From Parcubacteria group bacterium Gr01-1014_3 (lineage in GTDB: Bacteria; Patescibacteriota; Minisyncoccia; UBA6257; WO2-44-18), in assembly GCA_007376445.1 (NCBI GenBank), contig VMGF01000003.1, positions 31,024 to 95,023 of the forward strand: a stretch of 64,000 bases of DNA, given 5' to 3'. A program made the translations under genes and the position numbers. Under the pieces are notes generated by a model. The model did not search any database. It was not told where the DNA came from and was given only the letters and a program-made list of their open reading frames with translations. Numbering within the stretch: position 1 is the first letter of the stretch; each line of letters starts with the position of its first letter. Of this stretch, positions 6,060-62,547 are shown piece by piece.

Positions 6060-6109
6060 CTCCTCAAATAGTTAAAGTTCCGACTAGATATTACAATAAT
6101 AACTTGCTT

Positions 6110-6240
6110 TTGACAATATAAATTTTCAATTCGCAATTTTACAATTTTCAATCAATTTCCAAGCATGAATTTTCAAATAGTTTGAACTTTCGGTCTTGAC
6201 CCTTGAATGAAAATTGGTATTTGAAAATTGAGAATTAAAG
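6110..6240. repeat. intergenic repeat family A copy 1 (CAATTTTCAAT...GGTCTTGA...GAATGAAAATTGGTATTTGAAAATTGAGAATT)
   Basis: Near-identical blocks at 44075-44190, 47365-47516 and 50210-50290. Confidence 0.7.
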
Positions 6241-9041: not shown

Positions 9042-9852
9042 TGATTTTGAAAAGTTTCGCGGCGTTTTTATACATTACATATTCCATATCCGTCTTGGAA
9101 ATTCCCAGCTTTTTCACATATTTAATATATTCTTTCGGACCAGCGAGCGGCCAATCCGTGCCGAAAATAAGTTTACGGGGCGTCTGTGAATACGCGATCA
9201 GCTCCTTGATCTTCTGTATCGTCATTTTGCCATAAGGCGAGTTAAACCCGTCATGCAAAAACAAACCGGAAATATCGGCATAAACATTCGGATTCCTATA
9301 CAGAACTTCGGCGCAGTCCATCATCCAGGGATTCCCAAGATGCGCTATCACTATCTTTAGATTCGGAAAATCTACTGCCACCTCATCAACACCGAGCGGA
9401 TGCGCGTATTTCACTTTCGCGAAAGTCTTGTAGGCGAGCGTGTCTCCTGTATGGAAAATTACTGGTACGCCCAGTCGGTCGCACATTTCATAGATCGGTC
9501 GCGCGACCGAATCGCCTGGATAGAAATGCTGATAACCGAGGTAAAGTTTAACTCCGACGATCTTTTTCAGCCGGATCAAAACCTCCAGCCGATCCAAATC
9601 TTGCTTGGTGTATTCAGACACGTTCAAAGAACCAATCACATGCAGATTTGAAAGTTCTTCGGTTAATTTGATAAGCGTGTCCGTGGAGGGACCAGTGCCA
9701 TCCTCGCCTCGCCAATTCGCGATCACCAACGCGTGATCCACTTTATTCTTCTTCATCTCCGCTAAAAGAGCGCTTCTTATTTCTTCATAGGACTTTTTAG
9801 CGAACGGAGTATTTTCCAGCTTTGTTATGTGTGTGTGCGCGTCTATGATCAT
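9034..9852 (-). CDS. metal-dependent amidohydrolase (amidohydrolase-2 / TIM-barrel family)
   Basis: IDAHTH N-terminal metal-binding motif, HTGD, IAHLG motifs. Confidence 0.65.
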   Translation of the reverse strand: MIIDAHTHITKLENTPFAKKSYEEIRSALLAEMKKNKVDHALVIANWRGEDGTGPSTDTLIKLTEELSNLHVIGSLNVSEYTKQDLDRLEVLIRLKKIVGVKLYLGYQHFYPGDSVARPIYEMCDRLGVPVIFHTGDTLAYKTFAKVKYAHPLGVDEVAVDFPNLKIVIAHLGNPWMMDCAEVLYRNPNVYADISGLFLHDGFNSPYGKMTIQKIKELIAYSQTPRKLIFGTDWPLAGPKEYIKYVKKLGISKTDMEYVMYKNAAKLFKINV

Positions 9853-9854
9853 GG

Positions 9855-9927
9855 AGCCACCTCCCGGAATCGAACCGGGGACCTTTGCTTTACGAAAGCA
9901 CTGCTCTACCAGCTGAGCTAAGGTGGC
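9855..9927 (-). tRNA. tRNA-Thr (anticodon CGT), copy 1
   Basis: Manual cloverleaf on minus strand: GCCACCT...AGCTGGTAGAGC...loop TTCGTAA...TTCGATT...AGGTGGC; CCA may be encoded (9852-9854). Confidence 0.7.
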
Positions 9928-9934
9928 TTTGACG

Positions 9935-9966
9935 TTATATTATAACATTTCCCGAGTTTTTCCAAA
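9935..9966 (-). promoter_or_regulatory. sigma70-like promoter for tRNA-Thr copy 1 (TTGGAA -35, extended TGTTATAAT -10); duplicated at 10236-10280
   Basis: Minus strand reads TTGGAAaaactcgggaaatgtTATAAT 8 nt before the tRNA 5' end. Confidence 0.55.
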
Positions 9967-10075
9967 GAAAATAAGAGCAGGTGACGAGAATCGTCCGGTC
10001 ATACGACCGGACAGCCCAGTCGGATGACTGGGCGAACTCACGTCTCTACTTTACCCCGCACCTTTTCTCGATTAG

Positions 10076-10147
10076 AGCCAGAGAGAGGAGTCGAACCTCC
10101 AACCCCTCCCTTACGAAGGGATTGCTCTGCCATTGAGCTACTCTGGC
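10076..10147 (-). tRNA. tRNA-Thr-like (anticodon CGT), copy 2, flanked by 35-bp inverted repeats
   Basis: GCCAGAG..GCTCAATGGCAGAGC..loop TTCGTAA..GGAGGTTCGACTCCTCT..CTCTGGC; 27-43 mismatch. Confidence 0.6.
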
Positions 10148-10181
10148 AAATTTTATACGTGATCGAGAAAAGGTGCGGGGT

Positions 10182-10218
10182 TTACGAAAGTAGTGTTCTA
10201 CCACTGAACTATATCGGC
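10182..10218 (-). pseudogene. tRNA 5'-half fragment (acceptor, D-arm, anticodon stem-loop CTACT-TTCGTAA), no 3' half
   Basis: GCCGATATAGTTCAGTGGTAGAACACTACTTTCGTAAA then runs into inverted-repeat sequence; no complementary 3' acceptor nearby. Confidence 0.45.
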
Positions 10219-10284
10219 GTCTCTCTTTATTTAAATACTAGGTCATATTATAACATTTTGCGGATTTTTTCAAAGAAAATAATG

Positions 10285-10356
10285 AGCGGATAACGGGAGT
10301 CGAACCCGTGTCTGATCCTTGGGAAGGATCCATAATAGCCGTTATACGATACCCGC
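10285..10356 (-). tRNA. tRNA-Gly (anticodon CCC)
   Basis: GCGGGTA..GTATAACGGCTATTAT..GGATCC-TTCCCAA..ACGGGTTCGACTCCCGT..TATCCGC. Confidence 0.75.
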
Positions 10357-13903: not shown

Positions 13904-16231
13904 ATGGAAAAAACAGGTGAAGTTGCTCTAGCCCGGACTTTAGGTTTGGGCTCTATCGTTCTCTTGGGGGTAGGCGCCCTTTTAGGCGGCGGTCTTCACG
14001 TTCTCCTCGGTCCCGCCATCGGACTTTCCGGTCCGGGTATGTTTATCGCCATGATTTTGGGCGGCTTGATCGCTCTTTTGAACCTTCAGATGTATGTGGC
14101 TCTCGGCACCACCTTCCCCGAAGCCGGAGGCGGTTATCTCTGGGTCCGAAAGGGTCTCGGCAATTTCCAGGGTTTCCTCGCTGGCTGGCTTTCTTGGTTC
14201 GCGCATCTTGCGGCCGGAGGTCTCTACGCGCTAGGTTTCGGTTTTTATGTCCATGAATTACTCACTACCTTCCGAATCGACATTGGCATCAGCCAGGATC
14301 TGCTCCAAAAAATCACCGCCATCGCCGTTATTTTAATTTTCGGATACCTAAACTGGCGGGGATCAAAAATGAGCGGCAGTACGGAAAATATCATCACCGT
14401 AATTCTTCTCGCCATCCTCGGCGCCTACGTACTTTTTGGTAGCGCGCAAATATTAAGCTTTGATCAACCTCTTCAAAACTATCTTCCGCTTTTGCCAAAT
14501 GGAATGCTGGGCATAATCATGGCGGCCGGTTTGTTTTATATCGCTTTTGAAGGTTCTGAAATTCAAGTACAGGCAGGTGAAGAAACGAAAAATCCCCAGC
14601 AAACTATCAAGCGTGGCCTCTTTATGTCCTGGGGAGTTGTTACCGCGCTATACATACTGATTGCGCTGATTATCGTAGGCGTGGAAAACTGGCAAACGGT
14701 ATCGGGCTATGGTGAAAGCGCCATCGTGGAAACCGCGGCCAAGTTCATGCCATTCGGCCGGTTCTTGCTGGTATTAAGCGGCCTGCTTGCCAACATAGCC
14801 GCCCTTAACGCTACTATCTATTCTTCCAGCCGAGTTTCCTTTGCTCTGGCTCGCGATAAGAACGTCTGGTCTCGTCTCGCTGAAATTCACTTAACCAACT
14901 TCACGCCTCATCTTTCGGTCATCGGCTCAGTACTCTTAATGATAGTGATGGTGGTCTCCCTTCCGCTGATCGACGTGGCTAGCATGGCCAGCTTGCTCTT
15001 TATTTTGTTATTTCTTCAGCTGAACATCGCCGGCATCAGCATTCATTATAAATGGCCAGATACCAAGTGGTATTATAAGATCCCATTTTTCCCGGCCACT
15101 CCTCTTATCGCCACCGCTTTTTACATTCTATTGGCCTTTACGATGCTGAGCGTCAATTTGGTCGCCTGGGCCGTCACCGCTTTTTGGGTTCTGCTGGGAT
15201 TCGTGAATTATTTCGCCTACACTGAAACTCGTAGCCGCGAAGATTTTGAAACCGGAATCGTTTATGAGGAAGCTGTCCGAATCGGCCCCAAGACCGGCAA
15301 GCGCATCCTTTTGCCGCTCGCCCCTGGTTTAGCTTGGGAAGAAATTAGAAATTTGAGCGAGGTAGCTTTCGCGCTCGCGAGTAAATTCGATGGAGAATTA
15401 ATTATCGTTCGCGTGCATGAGGTTCCGCCGGCCATGGCCCTACACCCGAACGCGGTGGGCAAAACCACGCTGGACCAGGAAAAAGAATTATTTGAAAAGC
15501 TCCAGGATCTGGTCACCGAGTACAACGTTAAAACCGGTCCGGCGAAAAAAGACATCAATTTTCACAGCCTGATCCTGATCGGCCGCGACGTGGTGGATGT
15601 GATCTTGGATGTAATTAAAATGGAAGATTGCGATCTTCTGATGATGAACTGGCAGGGCTACACGCAGGCGAAAGGCGCCATTTTAGGCCGCCGTATTGAC
15701 CGCGTCCTCCGTGAAGCCAAGTGTGACTTATTGGTTATTAAAAATCCGAAACCAATCAACTCTATCCTGCTCGCTATACATCCATCAGCCAAGAGTCCGT
15801 ATTTGGAACTCATGGGCGAGATTGCTACCGGCTTAATAGATTTCTACAAATCCAAGATCGAGCTTTTCAGCGTGATCGCGCAAAATGTGCCGGCTTATCT
15901 CAAGCCCGATCCGACCATGGCATTGAAGCGCTTACAAATGAAGCGTAAAGATTTCGCCAACATTATTTATGCCTCCGAAAAATCCGTAGTCAGCGGAATT
16001 CTCAAAGAAGCTGAGCAGAAGCAATCAGATCTGATCATCGTGGGCGCTTCGCTACCAAAGATTTTAAAAGAGATCCGTTTCGGCACGGATGCCGAGATGA
16101 TTGTAAAACTAGCCAAAACTTCAGTCATGATCGTGCGCGGACATCAGGGTCCGGCTGAGAATTTTATCCGTAATCTGCTTCATAAGTTTTCCACACCCAA
16201 GGAGCTTCCGGAAAAACCTCCGGTGGTATAA
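13904..16231 (+). CDS. APC-family amino acid permease fused to two C-terminal universal stress protein (UspA) domains
   Basis: 12-TM permease core followed by two USP-like alpha/beta domains. Confidence 0.75.
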   Translation: MEKTGEVALARTLGLGSIVLLGVGALLGGGLHVLLGPAIGLSGPGMFIAMILGGLIALLNLQMYVALGTTFPEAGGGYLWVRKGLGNFQGFLAGWLSWFAHLAAGGLYALGFGFYVHELLTTFRIDIGISQDLLQKITAIAVILIFGYLNWRGSKMSGSTENIITVILLAILGAYVLFGSAQILSFDQPLQNYLPLLPNGMLGIIMAAGLFYIAFEGSEIQVQAGEETKNPQQTIKRGLFMSWGVVTALYILIALIIVGVENWQTVSGYGESAIVETAAKFMPFGRFLLVLSGLLANIAALNATIYSSSRVSFALARDKNVWSRLAEIHLTNFTPHLSVIGSVLLMIVMVVSLPLIDVASMASLLFILLFLQLNIAGISIHYKWPDTKWYYKIPFFPATPLIATAFYILLAFTMLSVNLVAWAVTAFWVLLGFVNYFAYTETRSREDFETGIVYEEAVRIGPKTGKRILLPLAPGLAWEEIRNLSEVAFALASKFDGELIIVRVHEVPPAMALHPNAVGKTTLDQEKELFEKLQDLVTEYNVKTGPAKKDINFHSLILIGRDVVDVILDVIKMEDCDLLMMNWQGYTQAKGAILGRRIDRVLREAKCDLLVIKNPKPINSILLAIHPSAKSPYLELMGEIATGLIDFYKSKIELFSVIAQNVPAYLKPDPTMALKRLQMKRKDFANIIYASEKSVVSGILKEAEQKQSDLIIVGASLPKILKEIRFGTDAEMIVKLAKTSVMIVRGHQGPAENFIRNLLHKFSTPKELPEKPPVV

Positions 16232-16392
16232 TAAGAGTAATCCCACCTTTAGATTCCAGATCAAATAATTGATCACGGGAGGTCGAATCGCTCCAGCCCT
16301 TGGGCTGACGGCTGAGACCACCCACCTAGCTTTCGCTGGGTCGTCTAAGGCGGGGTTACAAAGCTCCCTCTTTATCGAGGGATTTTTGTTTC

Positions 16393-16459
16393 CAGGCAGT
16401 AGAAGTTCGCCAAGGCCATTAGGGCCTCTGGGCTCATCGGGCGAACTTTCACTGCCTGG
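16393..16459. ncRNA. conserved long hairpin motif copy 1 (CCAGGCAGTAGAAGTTCGCC...GGCGAACTTTCACTGCCTGG) in the leader of the exonuclease gene
   Basis: Same stem with compensatory substitutions recurs at 40489-40554. Confidence 0.45.
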
Positions 16460-16515
16460 TTTACAAGGTCATTATTTTTCTATAAGATTGCGGCGTACCT
16501 TGAAAAGGAGAAAAT

Positions 16516-17163
16516 ATGAACCCCCATGTAAACCGAATCGCATTCGTGGACATAGAAACCACCGATATCAAATACTTTAAGTTATTGAATCCTGCCAGAG
16601 AAGACCTCACGCCGTGGGCGGAGATTTGTGAGATTGGAATTGTCGTAGCCACCCCCGACCTCCAAATTATCGAAGAATTTGAAGCCAAGACAACTCTCCG
16701 GTTCCCAGCTCGGCTCGATCCGCGAGCGCAAGCAGTTAATGGGTATGACGAAAAAGACTGGGAACATTCGCGTGATATCGCCGATGCCTTGCAGGCTTAC
16801 GGCCGGCTAATGGAAAGCGCTGGTGGCTGCCTGTTCGCTTCGCAAAATCCAACCTTTGACCGCACGATCTTAGAGATCGCCTGCATTCAGCATATGGTCA
16901 AAGTTAAGATCGATTATCATTCACTCGATGTCTGGACTCATTCATTCGCCACTCTGAGTGCGAAAGGATACAAGCTGGAAAATTACGGCCTAAATTCCGT
17001 GGCCAAGTTCCTGGGTATGAACGAAGAGCCACTGCCGCATCGAGGACTGACCGGCGCCAGATATGCCTGGGAAGTTACTAAGCGAGTCCGCGAGTTGCCG
17101 ATGAAAGCTGCTGGTATTGTTGGTTCGCCGATTGGTTGCCTGGGGACGCCGACCAATGAGTAA
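16516..17163 (+). CDS. DEDD-family 3'-5' exonuclease (DnaQ/RNase T-like)
   Basis: FVDIETTD Exo I motif, second acidic motif and H-x4-D Exo III region. Confidence 0.7.
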   Translation: MNPHVNRIAFVDIETTDIKYFKLLNPAREDLTPWAEICEIGIVVATPDLQIIEEFEAKTTLRFPARLDPRAQAVNGYDEKDWEHSRDIADALQAYGRLMESAGGCLFASQNPTFDRTILEIACIQHMVKVKIDYHSLDVWTHSFATLSAKGYKLENYGLNSVAKFLGMNEEPLPHRGLTGARYAWEVTKRVRELPMKAAGIVGSPIGCLGTPTNE

Positions 17164-21875: not shown

Positions 21876-22796
21876 TCACTGCCTTACTAACTTTAAAACT
21901 CCGCCGCTCCAACTCGAACCCATCGTCCCCTTCTCCAGGGTAGTGAAGATCTGCGCCCCCGCGGATTTGAGACGAGCGAGCGCTGCCGGCGTGGGGTGGC
22001 CGTAAGTATTTTTGCCAACTTCGATGATCGCGGCCTTCGGTTTTACCGCGGCTAAAAATTCCGCGCCGCTGGAAAATCGAGAACCGTGATGCCCGACCTT
22101 CAAAATATCCGCCGATAGATCGTATCTTTTCATCAACTCGTTTTCGACATTAAAGCCAATATCTGCCGTAAATAAGATCTTGAAGTTCTTGTCGCGAAGC
22201 ATAGTCACCAAGCTGGTGTCGTTTAGCTCGCTACTTAATAGATCACCGCTATTCGGAGAAAGAATGCCTAAGGCCGTATCCTCGTGAATTATCCGATCTT
22301 CCTCCGCTAATTGAATATACGGAACGCCCCGATTCTGAAGCTCGTTGATTAGAGTCTGATAAGCTCCGGCAGTGCCTTTTCTGCCATTCCCAATAAACGC
22401 TCCGACTTCATAATTTTTCAGCACATCAATAAACCCTCCGAAGTGGTCTAACTGGGGATGGGTCATCAAAAGCATATCGATATACCGGTCCTGGGGCGGT
22501 AAGACTTTGGCCAGCGCCGTTAACACTTTGCCATCCGGATTCCCAGCATCGATCAATAACTTCGGGCCACCAGGAAAAATAATCAGCTGGCTATCCCCTT
22601 GCCCGACATCCAGAAAATAAATTCTGGCACTATCACGCGTGATAGTGCTTGCTTGGATAATCTGATACCAGACAATTCCGTCCAGCAATAATAACGCCGC
22701 TACAATATATAAAACCCAGTTAGACTTTTTTGCTTTGGAATTTTTGTTCAGCATAATAGACAAGTCCAATAAGCGCGGCCCAATAAAGCACGCCAT
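21876..22796 (-). CDS. comEC: ComEC C-terminal metallo-beta-lactamase domain protein (split from N-terminal part)
   Basis: HxHxDH-type MBL motifs (HPQLDH, HHGSR); likely starts at internal Met near 22754. Confidence 0.7.
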   Translation of the reverse strand: MACFIGPRLLDLSIMLNKNSKAKKSNWVLYIVAALLLLDGIVWYQIIQASTITRDSARIYFLDVGQGDSQLIIFPGGPKLLIDAGNPDGKVLTALAKVLPPQDRYIDMLLMTHPQLDHFGGFIDVLKNYEVGAFIGNGRKGTAGAYQTLINELQNRGVPYIQLAEEDRIIHEDTALGILSPNSGDLLSSELNDTSLVTMLRDKNFKILFTADIGFNVENELMKRYDLSADILKVGHHGSRFSSGAEFLAAVKPKAAIIEVGKNTYGHPTPAALARLKSAGAQIFTTLEKGTMGSSWSGGVLKLVRQ

Positions 22797-29015: not shown

Positions 29016-29092
29016 TGTAAATTTTCAATTTTAAATTTTGAAATTTTAATTTAAATTAAAATTTATAATTTCAAATTTTAAATTATTGAGTA
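29016..29092. promoter_or_regulatory. AT-rich palindromic leader element family B copy 1 (contains perfect palindrome AAATTTTAATTTAAATTAAAATTT), directly upstream of tgt
   Basis: Near-identical blocks upstream of rplL (35869-35951) and rnc (46806-46876); no Shine-Dalgarno. Confidence 0.6.
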
Positions 29093-41864: not shown

Positions 41865-44048
41865 CTATTCCAGTTTTACGGAGAGTAATCGCGAAGTTCC
41901 ATCGCTTCCCATCGTAACGCCATACATGATATCCGCCGATTCCATGGTGGCGCGATTATGCGTGACAATAATAAACTGAGTTTTGGAAGAAAAATCTTTA
42001 ACCAGTTCCGCGAACTTTCGCGCGTTGCGTTCGTCCAGGGCGGCATCTACTTCATCAAGCACCAAAAACGGCGGTGGACTGACGGAAATCAAGGCAAACA
42101 AAACCGCCACGGACACCAAGGCCTTTTCTCCGCCAGAAAGCATTTCGAGGCCACTGATCTTTTTGCGAGGAATACTGATGCCCATCTCAATGCCACCGTG
42201 GTCGAATTTATGGTCCTCCTCCCTTTCCGCCGCCCCCTGCCTACCGGCAGGCAGGTCCTCCACCATCGCTTCCTCGGCTTCACTTATAATTTTCTTTTCT
42301 TTTTTAACCAGAGTTAGCTTTGCTGATCCGCCGTCGAAAAGCAGTTTGAAATATTTATTGAATTCTTCGTTGATGGACTTGAGCGCGCTGTTAAATTCTC
42401 CGTGAATTTTCTCATCCAAGTCATTAATAAGTAAGGCGAGATCGGCTGAAGCTTTTTTCAAATCTTCATTTTGCGCGGACAAAAAATTGTAGCGTGATTC
42501 AGTTTCCTGCGCTTCTTTAACTAGCGCCGGATCAAGATCACCAATACCAGCCAACTCCGCGCGCAGCTTGAACATCCGCTTCTCCATCTCGGCGAAATCG
42601 CTAGTCTTTCCGCCCGAGGCGGATCCTCGTTGGGAGGAAAATTCATGCAATCGGCGGCCAGATTGCATCGCCAGGTTTTCCAGTTCTTTCCGGCGGATCT
42701 CTACTCTTTCTCTTTCAAATAAAATTTTATTCTTCTCGGTATCCAGACGCGCCATCTCATCTTTTTTCTGCTCGACTAATTCAAAGGCTCTCCGGAAAGT
42801 GCCGGTGAACTGCTTGAGCGTGTCGTTGAGGTGGCTTTCCGCCTCCCTAAGCTTATTTAAATCAGCGTCCACCGTCTGAATATCCGCCATCGCCTTTTTC
42901 TTAGCACTATCCAATTCAGCGATCTTTTCATCCCGGCCGGAATTATCTGCCTGCAAGCTGTCATCGATACGCTTGATCAGCTTTTGCAAAAGCGACTTCA
43001 CTGCGCCAAAATCGCCTTCATTTAATACCGCGCCAATCGCGCCCTTCACTTCCTCAAGCAGTTTCACCGCCTCCGCGGCTTTAATTTCGCTCTTCGGCTG
43101 AGCCGCCAAAAACTCCATCTGCGCCTCCAAACGGCCAAGTTCTTTTTGAAGTAAAGATTTCCGGTTTAGAACATCGCTCTGCTGTTTTTTAAAATCGTTG
43201 AATCCTTTGTCGTCGGAAGGCTGAGCTTTTTCTACTTTATGTAATTCTTCCTGTAATTTTCTTAATTCTTGATTCTTGATTCCTACTTCCTGATTTATTT
43301 TTTGGATCTGCGGTTCAATGGCGGAAAAATCCGATTCGATCACGCCGAGTCTTCCGCTGAAATAATTTTCCTCCAAAGTTCGCAATTCTTTTTCGACTTC
43401 GGCATGCTTTTCCCAACGCGTGGTCTGGCGTCTTAATAACCGAAGATGTGGCAGTATCTCCTGCACCATCGCCTCCACCTTATCGAGGTTGATCTTGGTA
43501 TTCTTCAGTTTATTCTGCGCCTCATGCTTTTTGAGCTGATACTGACGAAGGCCGAGTACCTCTTCGATCATCTCGCGCCGTTCTTCCTGGCTAGCCCGCA
43601 CGAATAGATCGCTACTGCCCTGGTTTATGATAGAAAACCCTTTTGTGCCGAGGCGGGCTTTGGCAAAAAAATCGATAATGTCTTTTAAGCGGACCTCCGA
43701 GCCATTTAATAAATATTCCGAAGTGCCATCGCGGCTAATCTTGCGGGTAATCGCGATCTCGGTGTAATCAATGGGAAAAAACCGGGTGCTGTTGTCGAAA
43801 ACAATGGTCGCCTGCGCCATACCAACACGCGGGCGCTCCGGCGTGCCAGCGAAGATCAGATCTTCCGCTTTGGCGCCACGGATATTTTTCGCTTCGCGTT
43901 CACCCAAAAGCCAACGCAAAGCGTCGATGACATTCGATTTACCAGAACCATTCGGACCAACAATAGCCGTGATTCCAGCCGGAAAATCGAGCGTGGTTTT
44001 GGAAACAAATGACTTAAAACCCACCAGCTCTAACTGCTTAAGTAGCAT
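41865..44048 (-). CDS. smc: SMC-family chromosome segregation ATPase (short, 727 aa)
   Basis: N-terminal Walker A GPNGSGKSN, long coiled coil, C-terminal LSGGEKALVSVAVLFAL...LDEVDAALDE. Confidence 0.8.
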   Translation of the reverse strand: MLLKQLELVGFKSFVSKTTLDFPAGITAIVGPNGSGKSNVIDALRWLLGEREAKNIRGAKAEDLIFAGTPERPRVGMAQATIVFDNSTRFFPIDYTEIAITRKISRDGTSEYLLNGSEVRLKDIIDFFAKARLGTKGFSIINQGSSDLFVRASQEERREMIEEVLGLRQYQLKKHEAQNKLKNTKINLDKVEAMVQEILPHLRLLRRQTTRWEKHAEVEKELRTLEENYFSGRLGVIESDFSAIEPQIQKINQEVGIKNQELRKLQEELHKVEKAQPSDDKGFNDFKKQQSDVLNRKSLLQKELGRLEAQMEFLAAQPKSEIKAAEAVKLLEEVKGAIGAVLNEGDFGAVKSLLQKLIKRIDDSLQADNSGRDEKIAELDSAKKKAMADIQTVDADLNKLREAESHLNDTLKQFTGTFRRAFELVEQKKDEMARLDTEKNKILFERERVEIRRKELENLAMQSGRRLHEFSSQRGSASGGKTSDFAEMEKRMFKLRAELAGIGDLDPALVKEAQETESRYNFLSAQNEDLKKASADLALLINDLDEKIHGEFNSALKSINEEFNKYFKLLFDGGSAKLTLVKKEKKIISEAEEAMVEDLPAGRQGAAEREEDHKFDHGGIEMGISIPRKKISGLEMLSGGEKALVSVAVLFALISVSPPPFLVLDEVDAALDERNARKFAELVKDFSSKTQFIIVTHNRATMESADIMYGVTMGSDGTSRLLSVKLE

Positions 44049-44074
44049 ACCTTAATTCTAAAACACAAAACTCC

Positions 44075-44190
44075 AATTTCCAATTATCAATTTTCATTCA
44101 ATACGCAATAACCAAACTTTAAACGGTTTAAAAATTGGTTCTTTGAAAATTCAATGAAAATTGCAAAATTGAGAATTGAAAATTAAAGGA
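44075..44190. repeat. intergenic repeat family A copy 2
   Basis: CAATTTTCATTCAAT ... ATTCAATGAAAATTGCAAAATTGAGAATTGAAAATT inverted arms. Confidence 0.65.
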
Positions 44191-44194
44191 GCCC

Positions 44195-46805: not shown

Positions 46806-46876
46806 AGACAAATTTTAAATTTTTAATTTTGAAATTTTAAATTAATTTAAAATTTTTAATTTATAATTGAAAATTA
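46806..46876. promoter_or_regulatory. AT-rich palindromic leader element family B copy 3, directly upstream of rnc
   Basis: TTTAAAATTTTTAATTTATAATTGAAAATTATT core. Confidence 0.6.
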
Positions 46877-47350
46877 TTTTTCAGCCGCTTTCTCTTTCTT
46901 CTCCCTCTTCGGCTCCTCTTTCAAGTCGCCTGAGGCGATCATCTGCTTATAAACCGTGCCAAGCACGCCATTAATAAATTTACCGGAATTCGGACCGCCG
47001 TAATTTTTCGAAATCTCAATGGCTTCATTAATCGCCACCTTCGGTGGAACTTCCTCATGATCGGCATACATCAGCTCATAAAGTCCGATACGAATGGCAT
47101 TGCGGTCAATAATCGCGATCTGCTCAAGCGGCCAATCCGGCGCGACCTTCGTGATTATCTCGTTCAGGTCTTTTAAATGTTCAACTATCCCCTTTACTAA
47201 ACGCCAGGCAAAATCCGGCTCATCGATACCCGGAGCGAACTCCAGTAAGTTCCTCTCAACGATCTTGATAAGGTCATTCTTCTGACTATAAAAATCCCAC
47301 TCGTACAAAGATTGTAGGACTACGGAACGCGCTAGTTGTCGAGTAGCCAT
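46874..47350 (-). CDS. nusB: transcription antitermination factor NusB with Lys/Glu-rich tail
   Basis: NusB fold signature. Confidence 0.85.
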
Positions 47351-47364
47351 GTTTTTATTATTAC

Positions 47365-47516
47365 AGAAAAATTCTCAATTTTCAAATACCTGTTTTTGAA
47401 TTTCCAAATATCAATTTTGCAATTTTCAATCAATTTACAATGAATTAATTTTCAAAACCATTGATCCTTAGGTCTTGATGATTGAATGAAAATTGGTATT
47501 TGGAAATTGAAAATTA
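47365..47516. repeat. intergenic repeat family A copy 3 (longest)
   Basis: Aligns along about 110 nt with copy 1 at 6128-6240. Confidence 0.7.
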
Positions 47517-47766
47517 CTTAGAGGATCCGTAGTGGGCGCACTGTGGGCAGGTTTTGTGCGACAAAACCGGACCCTGGCAATTCGGGCATACGGAAATATT
47601 CAGCTTCTTGAGGGCCATATGCGAACGCCTGCGCCCCGTCTTCCCTTTTGAATGATGTTTTGTTGGTACACCTCCCATAAATTTATTAGTTAGATTATAT
47701 AGCTATTTCAGATTTTCGTCAACTTTGACTTTCAAATACACCGAGGCGTAAAATTAAGGGAGTTGT

Positions 47767-50182: not shown

Positions 50183-50209
50183 ACAATCGTCCCCGCAAAT
50201 GCGGGGACT

Positions 50210-50290
50210 TTTAATTTTCAATTCTCAATTTTGCAATTTTCAAATTTGGAAATTGAATGAAAATTGGTAATTGGAAATTGATAATTGGTG
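50210..50290. repeat. intergenic repeat family A copy 4 (short)
   Basis: CAATTTTGCAATTTTCAAATTTGGAAATTGAATGAAAATTGGTAATTGGAAATTG. Confidence 0.65.
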
Positions 50291-50324
50291 TTGTATAGTC
50301 TTGGTAGTTACTTGAAAGGGCTCA

Positions 50325-55015: not shown

Positions 55016-55047
55016 CCACCCCACTATCACATGTGATAGTGGGGTGG
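55016..55047. promoter_or_regulatory. 32-bp perfect palindrome CCACCCCACTATCACATGTGATAGTGGGGTGG overlapping the promoter (TATAAT at 55048-55053) of the HTH gene
   Basis: Palindrome immediately followed by TATAAT and an 11-nt leader. Confidence 0.7.
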
Positions 55048-55557: not shown

Positions 55558-55585
55558 CAGCCACTATCACATGTGATAGTGGCTG
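55558..55585. promoter_or_regulatory. 28-bp perfect palindrome CAGCCACTATCACATGTGATAGTGGCTG downstream of the HTH gene
   Basis: Third copy of the palindrome family. Confidence 0.7.
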
Positions 55586-62412: not shown

Positions 62413-62547
62413 GACAATAATCATTTTTCGGAACATGTCGGAGCCCAGACAGCTTGGTTTTTCGCGAAGCGAAAATGTCTGGGCGAGAGAGAAGAAAATC
62501 CGGCTGCTAGAGCCGGATTATTCTGTTTCCGAAAAATGATTATTGTC
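62413..62547. ncRNA. about 135-nt structured element: 23-bp outer inverted repeat (GACAATAATCATTTTTCGGAAAC) enclosing three inner hairpins; lies where rplA/L1 leader would be expected
   Basis: Perfect outer stem plus inner hairpins CCCAGACA...TGTCTGGG, TTTTCGCGAAGCGAAAA, AATCCGGCTGCTAGAGCCGGATT; no ORF. Confidence 0.45.

Follow-up and report, generated by a model that had tools for sequence, protein, structure and literature searches.

The two matching hairpins of the window (the whole 64-kb stretch of DNA that was analysed) are mobile insertions. Each is missing from the corresponding site of a close relative and is flanked by a short duplication of target DNA. Both belong to a family dispersed through Patescibacteria (CPR), whose stems covary and whose arms are also found at the ends of cassettes encoding a GIY-YIG nuclease. 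Probably the window hairpins are non-autonomous, MITE-like elements of Patescibacteria, ORF-less derivatives of these GIY-YIG cassettes, with the nuclease as the presumed mobiliser.

Copy 1 (68 nt; 16392-16459, + strand) consists of the arms CCAGGCAGTAGAAGTTCGCC (16392-16411) and GGCGAACTTTCACTGCCTGG (16440-16459) around a 28-nt loop (16412-16439) that contains a small hairpin of its own, and copy 2 (66 nt; 40489-40554, + strand) of CCAGGAAGTAGAAGTTCGAT (40489-40508) and ATCGAACTTTCACTTCCTGG (40535-40554) around a 26-nt loop (40509-40534) containing GCTCGCGAAGCGAG. A sequence-only reading of this DNA had proposed two matching hairpins with a 20-bp stem, and they are present at both sites, although copy 1, for which that reading gave the correct end, starts one base earlier, at 16392. 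The stem is 20 bp in both copies and the two loops are unrelated. What had been seen as an identical asymmetric bulge is indeed common to both stems, but is a tandem mismatch (A.C beside G.T) at stem positions 10-11, because arm one reads TAGTAGAAGTTC and arm two (inward) TAGTGAAAGTTC. Paired substitutions between copy 1 and copy 2 were found in the outer and inner stem as first reported (GGCAG/CTGCC vs GGAAG/CTTCC; CGCC/GGCG vs CGAT/ATCG). An 18-nt arm pattern has four matches in the window, one for every arm of the two copies, where shuffles predict 0.07, and the folding energy on either strand is -32 to -40 kcal/mol (z -5.5 to -7.4). The covariance model (R1) scores 63.6 bits for copy 1 (E 2e-17) and 62.5 bits for copy 2, and a search of the 64-kb window with filters off found no third copy. 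No family matching the hairpin was found in Rfam at gathering or permissive thresholds. Intrinsic termination was considered and rejected, as the T run of copy 2 is on the non-coding strand for both neighbouring genes and copy 1 is followed only by TTT; a terminator scan near both copies called other hairpins and not these.

The copies are oriented alike on the + strand. Copy 1 lies between two + strand genes, for a permease/Usp protein (13904-16231) and an RNase T-like exonuclease (16516-17163), and copy 2 between two - strand genes, rpsP (40615-40941) and a KH-domain gene (40150-40452), confirming that their orientation relative to the genes is opposite. Copy 2 sits 15 nt downstream of a promoter-like site of the KH gene (TTGACG-17-TATAAT; 40570-40598, - strand) and is therefore expected to be transcribed in the KH 5′ leader. 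Copy 1 follows a terminator-like hairpin, abuts the exonuclease gene's -35-like hexamer (TTTACA) and is probably not in a leader at all; of the two 5′ leader positions originally suggested, only that of copy 2 is thus probable.

At the KH site, L089 (GCA_040960315.1; KH protein 97% identical) has the same promoter sequence and leader and no hairpin. Its empty site is TTTAAAAAGGTCGC, where the window has TTAAAAA, the element (CCAGG...CCTGG) and AAAAAGGTCGC. Comparison with L089 places the target-site duplication (TSD) of copy 2 at 40484-40488 on the KH-gene side (TTTTT on the + strand, AAAAA on the gene strand) and at 40555-40559 on the promoter side (TTTTT). The rpsP-KH spacer is also without the hairpin in the more distant L090, L093, L096 and L098, and no copies were found in 150 kb of syntenic DNA from these four relatives. 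The exonuclease site is empty in L183 (protein 79% identical), which has GATTTTTGTTT followed directly by ACAAAATG; the window has GATTTTTGTTT, the element (CCAGG...CCTGG) and TTTACAAGG. Here the L183 comparison gives a left-hand TSD of TTT at 16389-16391 (or GTTT with the boundary moved by one base) and a right-hand TTT at 16460-16462, which also starts the -35-like hexamer. The hairpin is missing from this site in L180 and L182 too. From the filled and empty sites, the element boundaries are the exact stem ends and 3-5 bp of an A/T run were duplicated, these lengths being based on one close relative for each copy and lying within homopolymer runs. Right flanks of family members often repeat 'N4+CC', and derivation of the CCNGG outer stem from the target, or a longer duplication, was therefore considered; the empty sites, however, assign the CC of the window copies to the element itself.

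The KH and exonuclease genes have a hairpin in common because the same mobile element inserted twice, and the sequence-only reading of a conserved motif of two leaders does not hold: the orthologous leaders (KH in L089, exonuclease in L183) lack the motif and the window has filled sites with TSDs. The shared hairpin carries no information on co-regulation of the two genes, which removes a false lead.

L087 (1-1136; sample ERZ27284375) contains an identical KH gene, leader and hairpin, and beyond the outer edge of the hairpin its DNA is wholly different, with no match in the window. An A in the first arm of the window copy is a T in L087, where, in addition, a 12-nt part of the left flank (TCGCGACCTTTT) reverse-complements the right flank. 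The difference points to rearrangement or recombination involving the element, or to a chimeric assembly.

The GC-rich, hairpin-dense stretch noticed upstream of copy 1 is real but lies outside the element, as a conserved, structured and non-coding region of its own (16240-16391, + strand), made up of a ~117-nt four-way junction, a terminator-like hairpin (16365-16382) and a T run, and is conserved in L180, L182 and L183, all of which are without the element. Consensus folding of the four sequences (alifold) gave 42 pairs, eight of them compensatory (fold z -4.8), and a conserved TATAAT lies just upstream in the alignment of relatives. Rfam returned only a sub-threshold match to 6S for this region (15.8-20.4 bits, threshold 46.4). 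The region may be an unclassified small RNA gene or leader.

A collection of species-representative genomes, scanned only with the 10+10 base core (GTAGAAGTTC-N20-50-GAACTTTCAC), yielded 86 loci. The extended stem is complete at about 72 of them, which are nearly all from Patescibacteria (Yanofsky-, Lipton-, Specht-, Doudna- and Harrisonbacteria, Paceibacteria and 'Saccharibacteria'), while ~14 non-CPR matches are without the stem and their number fits chance expectation. Often there are several copies per MAG, with 4-6 exact-core copies on separate contigs (e.g. in CAIKUK01, CAYTBY01 and CAYSDF01), and covariance model R1 added ~8 more diverged copies on the loci. A relaxed hairpin pattern had 0 matches in viral contigs.

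The 72 distinct copies aligned (A2) are 54-81 nt long. From the outside in, the arms consist of CCNGG, a conserved core (reading (T/A/C)AGTAGAAGTTC in one and (T/A/C)AGTGAAAGTTC in its partner) and three covarying pairs, and the variable loop is 20-50 nt; conservation of the core among these copies is partly ascertainment, as the core was fixed by the search pattern. In the 19-pair stem 98% of cells are paired, with double-sided changes at eight of the ten positions free of the search pattern, and the covariation score is 0.317, compared with 0.085 in shuffles and at most 0.053 with slid partners. Where the stem is free to vary, G.T and A.C are about equally frequent (15 and 14). The covariation first read from two copies as the mark of a selected structure thus holds over 72. 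The search for homologs, on which that reading had been staked (none, or only unpaired ones, would have spoken against it), found homologs with pairing kept, and these point to a mobile element and not to a regulatory RNA. The alternative it had allowed, that the element acts at the DNA level and tolerates either orientation, fits the data.

Direct repeats flanking the copies are usually about 4 nt, and repeats of at least 5 nt were found at 36 of 76 copies (shuffled controls had a mean of 6 and at most 14). A crude ORF call places 66 of 78 copies between genes, and there is no preferred orientation with respect to co-directional neighbours (21 same, 15 opposite). A neighbouring ORF ends at the element's own TAG in 15 copies, indicating insertion into the 3′ ends of genes, and in the dockerin-like genes of L015 and L031 the old reading frame resumes past the right-hand repeat. 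As in MITEs, the elements are small and non-coding, with terminal inverted repeats, TSDs, presence/absence polymorphism, dispersed copies (two in the 64-kb window) and a longer coding relative with the same ends. The presence of the family in many Patescibacteria lineages can mislead RNA-motif discovery, assembly and gene calling, as the elements supply stop codons and N-terminal extensions.

Regulation of the KH and exonuclease genes in cis by the hairpin as a conserved RNA (a leader hairpin, an attenuator or a protein-binding RNA) is largely refuted by these observations and is extremely improbable. A stable fold on either strand, strong covariation and the location of copy 2 just 3′ of a strong promoter-like site would all suit such an RNA. 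However, its position is not conserved, the same leaders of close relatives being without it, and it has no fixed gene orientation, either in the window or across the family, where neighbouring genes elsewhere are unrelated. The flanking duplications, the position of copy 1 upstream of a -35-like hexamer, the lack of G.U enrichment over A.C and the lack of an Rfam family likewise argue against it.

Loops of many copies (in the window 40518-40531; also L011, L015, L052 and L030) contain one or two short hairpins closed on GAA, GTA or AAA triloops, e.g. GCGAAGC, an unusually stable DNA mini-hairpin. A subfamily (L001, L016-L019, L027, L034 and L053) has a conserved second loop hairpin (ACAATTTGC...GCAAATTGT) with compensatory changes of its own. 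In L017, L021 and L043 the left flank of the hairpin abuts DNA resembling a tRNA 3′ end (T-arm-like GGTTCAAATCC..., then ..CCGA-CCA directly followed by GG), where the CCA of the putative tRNA would make the first stem bases.

A 90-aa ORF adjoins the hairpin in L015, L031, L082 and L026. The product of this ORF (87-90 aa in different cassettes) is a GIY-YIG domain (Pfam PF01541, E 2.5e-17) of UPF0213-like type, with the UPF0213 proteins 1ZG2 and 1YWL as nearest solved relatives (E 2e-7 and 5e-6). It has the GIY-YIG catalytic motif, with invariant residues Y6, Y17, G19, R27, H31 and E63 (alignment A5), and no DNA-binding domain beyond the catalytic fold. Scanning metagenomes with an alignment of this protein gave 573 relatives, from which 80 loci were kept, and arms of the hairpin family enclose the ORF in most of the closer ones. 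The window itself contains no GIY-YIG gene.

Complete cassettes (36 distinct; 294-363 bp, ~310 bp) have the layout N4, CCAGGTAGTGAAAATTCGA, ~8 nt, ATG...stop, 0-5 nt, TCGAATTTCTACTACCTGG, N4. A perfect duplication of 3-4 nt, mostly TATG, ATG or TGGA, flanks 29 of the 36 (4 nt in 24 of them). In 31/36 the host ORF begins with the right-hand repeat, and the (T)ATG duplication coincides with the start codon; the hosts checked are rpoB, secA, secD, rplJ, recO and genes for an FtsX-type permease, a polysaccharide-synthesis epimerase and an ICMT-like methyltransferase. In 12 cassettes the left-hand host ATG is in frame, through the arm, with the GIY-YIG ORF, which may explain homologs of 98-101 aa in the protein database. 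The arms, ~270 bp apart, are 94% paired and covary, and all 36 have the tandem mismatch at positions 10-11; at variable positions G.T and A.C occur three and seven times, respectively. The ORF is found in both orientations relative to the asymmetry of the mismatch (25 vs 11 cassettes). Of 13 hairpins in GIY-YIG loci, 9-10 are within ~130 nt of the ORF, and in L110, L106 and L135 a neighbouring hairpin and cassette have arm sequence and 4-nt flank in common. At most GIY-YIG loci (about 70/80) there is no ORF-less hairpin nearby. L115 (1290-1320) and L116 (1530-1560) have a 31-nt mini-hairpin with a CAAAG duplication in frame inside the GIY-YIG ORF, adding 12 codons and no stop.

Coding members of the hairpin family carry only a GIY-YIG gene. 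No full-length IS with these arms was detected by a solo-arm scan of all loci, which gave chance coding matches (L073) and one partial arm 3′ of a GIY-YIG gene (L015), and only GIY-YIG ORFs were seen beside or between arms in an unsystematic inspection of ~840 kb of loci.

It is unlikely that the hairpin is instead a MITE moved by another transposase, with the GIY-YIG ORF as a secondary, homing-endonuclease-like parasite of hairpin loops. GIY-YIG proteins are known as homing endonucleases and not as transposases, and the two ORF orientations, the many GIY-YIG loci without a nearby ORF-less hairpin and the bare catalytic fold would all agree with a parasite. Against this, in the loci inspected, though unsystematically, only GIY-YIG ORFs were seen with these arms, and the cassette is extremely compact with conserved junctions between arm, start codon, stop codon and arm. 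At many unrelated genes the cassettes are flanked by 4-nt duplications of their own, which argues for transposition and not homing into a hairpin. The two orientations could also reflect repeated entry of the ORF into hairpin loops. A classical homing endonuclease gene was rejected as an explanation of the cassette, given the many unrelated targets, the 20-bp inverted arms and the 3-4 nt duplications.

Under the preferred explanation, in which the GIY-YIG protein would be the mobilising enzyme and would act in trans on ORF-less copies, the small nuclease would act on single-stranded DNA and recognise its folded arms, with the invariant tandem mismatch, roughly a helical turn inside the element boundary, serving as a landmark. 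It would cut both the element ends and the target in a staggered manner. We infer that the ends are read as a folded structure because pairing, and not sequence, is kept at ten stem positions, together with the invariant mismatch. Folded single-stranded DNA is the presumed substrate because G.T is not above A.C, whereas a constraint on RNA would favour wobble pairs; pairing of cassette arms across ~270 bp would need a single-stranded form, which is a predicted state. Against this explanation, the window contains no GIY-YIG gene, most GIY-YIG loci are without a nearby ORF-less hairpin, the ORF has two orientations relative to the mismatch, the window copies are not inserted at an ATG, and we know of no bare catalytic-domain protein of 90 aa that performs transposition. 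An effect of the window copies on expression may be supposed, copy 2 in particular being predicted to add a stable hairpin near the 5′ end of the KH mRNA.

More tentatively, the ~310-bp cassette is possibly a DNA transposon that is autonomous with a single protein, a bare GIY-YIG nuclease domain; its ends would be recognised as a mismatched hairpin, its cuts would be staggered by 4 nt and its target would be the host start codon. Targeting of start codons would let the cassette borrow the translation signals of the host gene, and the window hairpins would be its miniature non-autonomous offspring. If this is true, the cassette represents a new class of prokaryotic transposable element, and, if it is autonomous, we know of no smaller autonomous transposable element. 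If the nuclease drives mobility, the chemistry of transposition would be one not described in bacteria, and so small a nuclease guided by structure would deserve attention for its mechanism and possibly as a tool. Searches of the open-access literature found neither the repeat nor a bacterial transposon that combines a GIY-YIG protein, inverted repeats and target duplication; a description may exist elsewhere. The hairpin is a new family of a known kind (MITE), and its coding relatives may be an extremely small new type of transposon.

It is somewhat unlikely that, alongside mobility at the DNA level, an advantage in RNA that makes insertion less costly keeps the stem paired. When closed, the stem would loop the insert out of the mRNA and bring the ribosome-binding site of the host next to the duplicated ATG or, alternatively, would create an RNase III site. 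Such a benefit would help to explain how essential genes tolerate a cassette at the start codon, and cassettes are found exactly at the start codons of essential genes that must stay expressed. Closure of the stem exactly at the element boundary, a distance of ~270 nt between cassette arms that is easily bridged in RNA, and equally good folding of both strands are also consistent with it. On the other hand, G.U is not above A.C at variable positions of hairpins or cassettes, and many copies are intergenic or at the 3′ ends of genes, where there would be no such benefit. Further support for the RNA-level reading comes from rRNA genes of CPR, in which GIY-YIG-encoding insertions and, separately, many short ORF-less insertions matching neither group I nor group II introns have been described (PMC11270868). 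These insertions are compatible with the hairpin/cassette family, which may explain them.

Like the Correia elements of Neisseria, the Rickettsia palindromic elements, ERIC/IRU and RUP, the hairpin is a small, non-coding, multi-copy element that folds through its terminal inverted repeats. Such MITEs and palindromic repeats of bacteria also have TSDs, are present or absent between relatives and are sometimes inserted in gene ends or in frame. However, in contrast to bacterial MITEs, the CPR hairpin is much smaller (54-81 nt), its partner with the same arms encodes only a GIY-YIG nuclease and not a DDE transposase, and its arms covary, in place of sequence conservation, around an invariant tandem mismatch.

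The cassette has the catalytic domain of GIY-YIG homing endonuclease genes (I-TevI, T4 seg) and, like them, is a selfish gene precisely inserted beside or inside conserved host genes. Those enzymes have added DNA-binding domains, and their genes have no terminal inverted repeats or TSD and occupy one cognate site via repair, whereas the cassettes have inverted arms, 4-nt duplications and many unrelated targets. In size and in having the catalytic domain only, the cassette protein resembles UPF0213/YhbQ-type proteins (1ZG2, 1YWL), which, to our knowledge, are encoded by uncharacterised single-copy genes with no reported mobile context. Penelope-like retroelements are also transposable elements with a GIY-YIG endonuclease, there used for integration, but are eukaryotic and kilobases long, encode a reverse transcriptase and move through RNA.

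Mobility via DNA hairpins recognised by structure, as we infer for the CPR element, and miniature ORF-less derivatives are also features of IS200/IS605, PATE and REP/RAYT. These differ in their Y1 HUH transposase, in the absence of a TSD and in having a separate hairpin at each end where the CPR element pairs end to end. It is very unlikely that the hairpin belongs among them, either as a REP/RAYT-type element or as a PATE-like derivative of IS200/IS605, with a Y1 (HUH) transposase moving it in single-stranded form. In favour, the element is a hairpin whose arm contains a conserved GTAG, pairing and not sequence is conserved, and an RNA-type wobble signature is missing, but REP/RAYT and IS200/IS605 families insert without target-site duplication, and duplications are the rule in the hairpin family. 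Moreover, the GTAG is within the stem and not at its foot, and the loci inspected, though unsystematically, had only GIY-YIG genes beside or between arms.

Integron attC sites resemble the CPR element in folded single-strand recognition (presumed for the latter), in structure taking precedence over sequence, in conserved unpaired or mismatched bases and in a variable central loop; the CPR element differs from them in having a target duplication and, apparently, in being without an integrase or cassette-array context. The attC consensus has R′′/L′′-L′/R′ boxes (RYYYAAC...GTTRRRY). An attC reading was set aside, as the arms (..GAAGTTCG.. / ..CGAACTTTC..), judged by eye, do not fit the box consensus.

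Other repeats are present in the window. AT-rich repeats with units like AATTTTCAATTTTGCAATTTTCAA occur in both orientations in at least seven places (6109-6237, 29016-29087, 35843-35951, 44048-44194, 46807-46878, 47370-47517 and 50203-50306). A 26-nt perfect palindrome (AGCCACTATCACATGTGATAGTGGCT) is found four times (37352-37377 and 55559-55584, which are identical, 55019-55044 and 22625-22650) and could be a terminator or a protein-binding site. Between apt and rpsP, just upstream of rpsP, a 32-nt inverted repeat (40967-40998 and 41038-41069; 91% complementary, 39-nt spacer) forms a large hairpin. Two 61-nt stretches (41795-41855 and 62485-62545), consisting of GAGAGAGAAGAAAA, a small hairpin and TTATTCTG.TTCCGAA, are 74% identical and may be another repeated non-coding motif. 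At 9852-10356 (- strand), two copies of tRNA-Thr(CGT) are followed by tRNA-Gly(CCC), with repeated 41-nt spacers.
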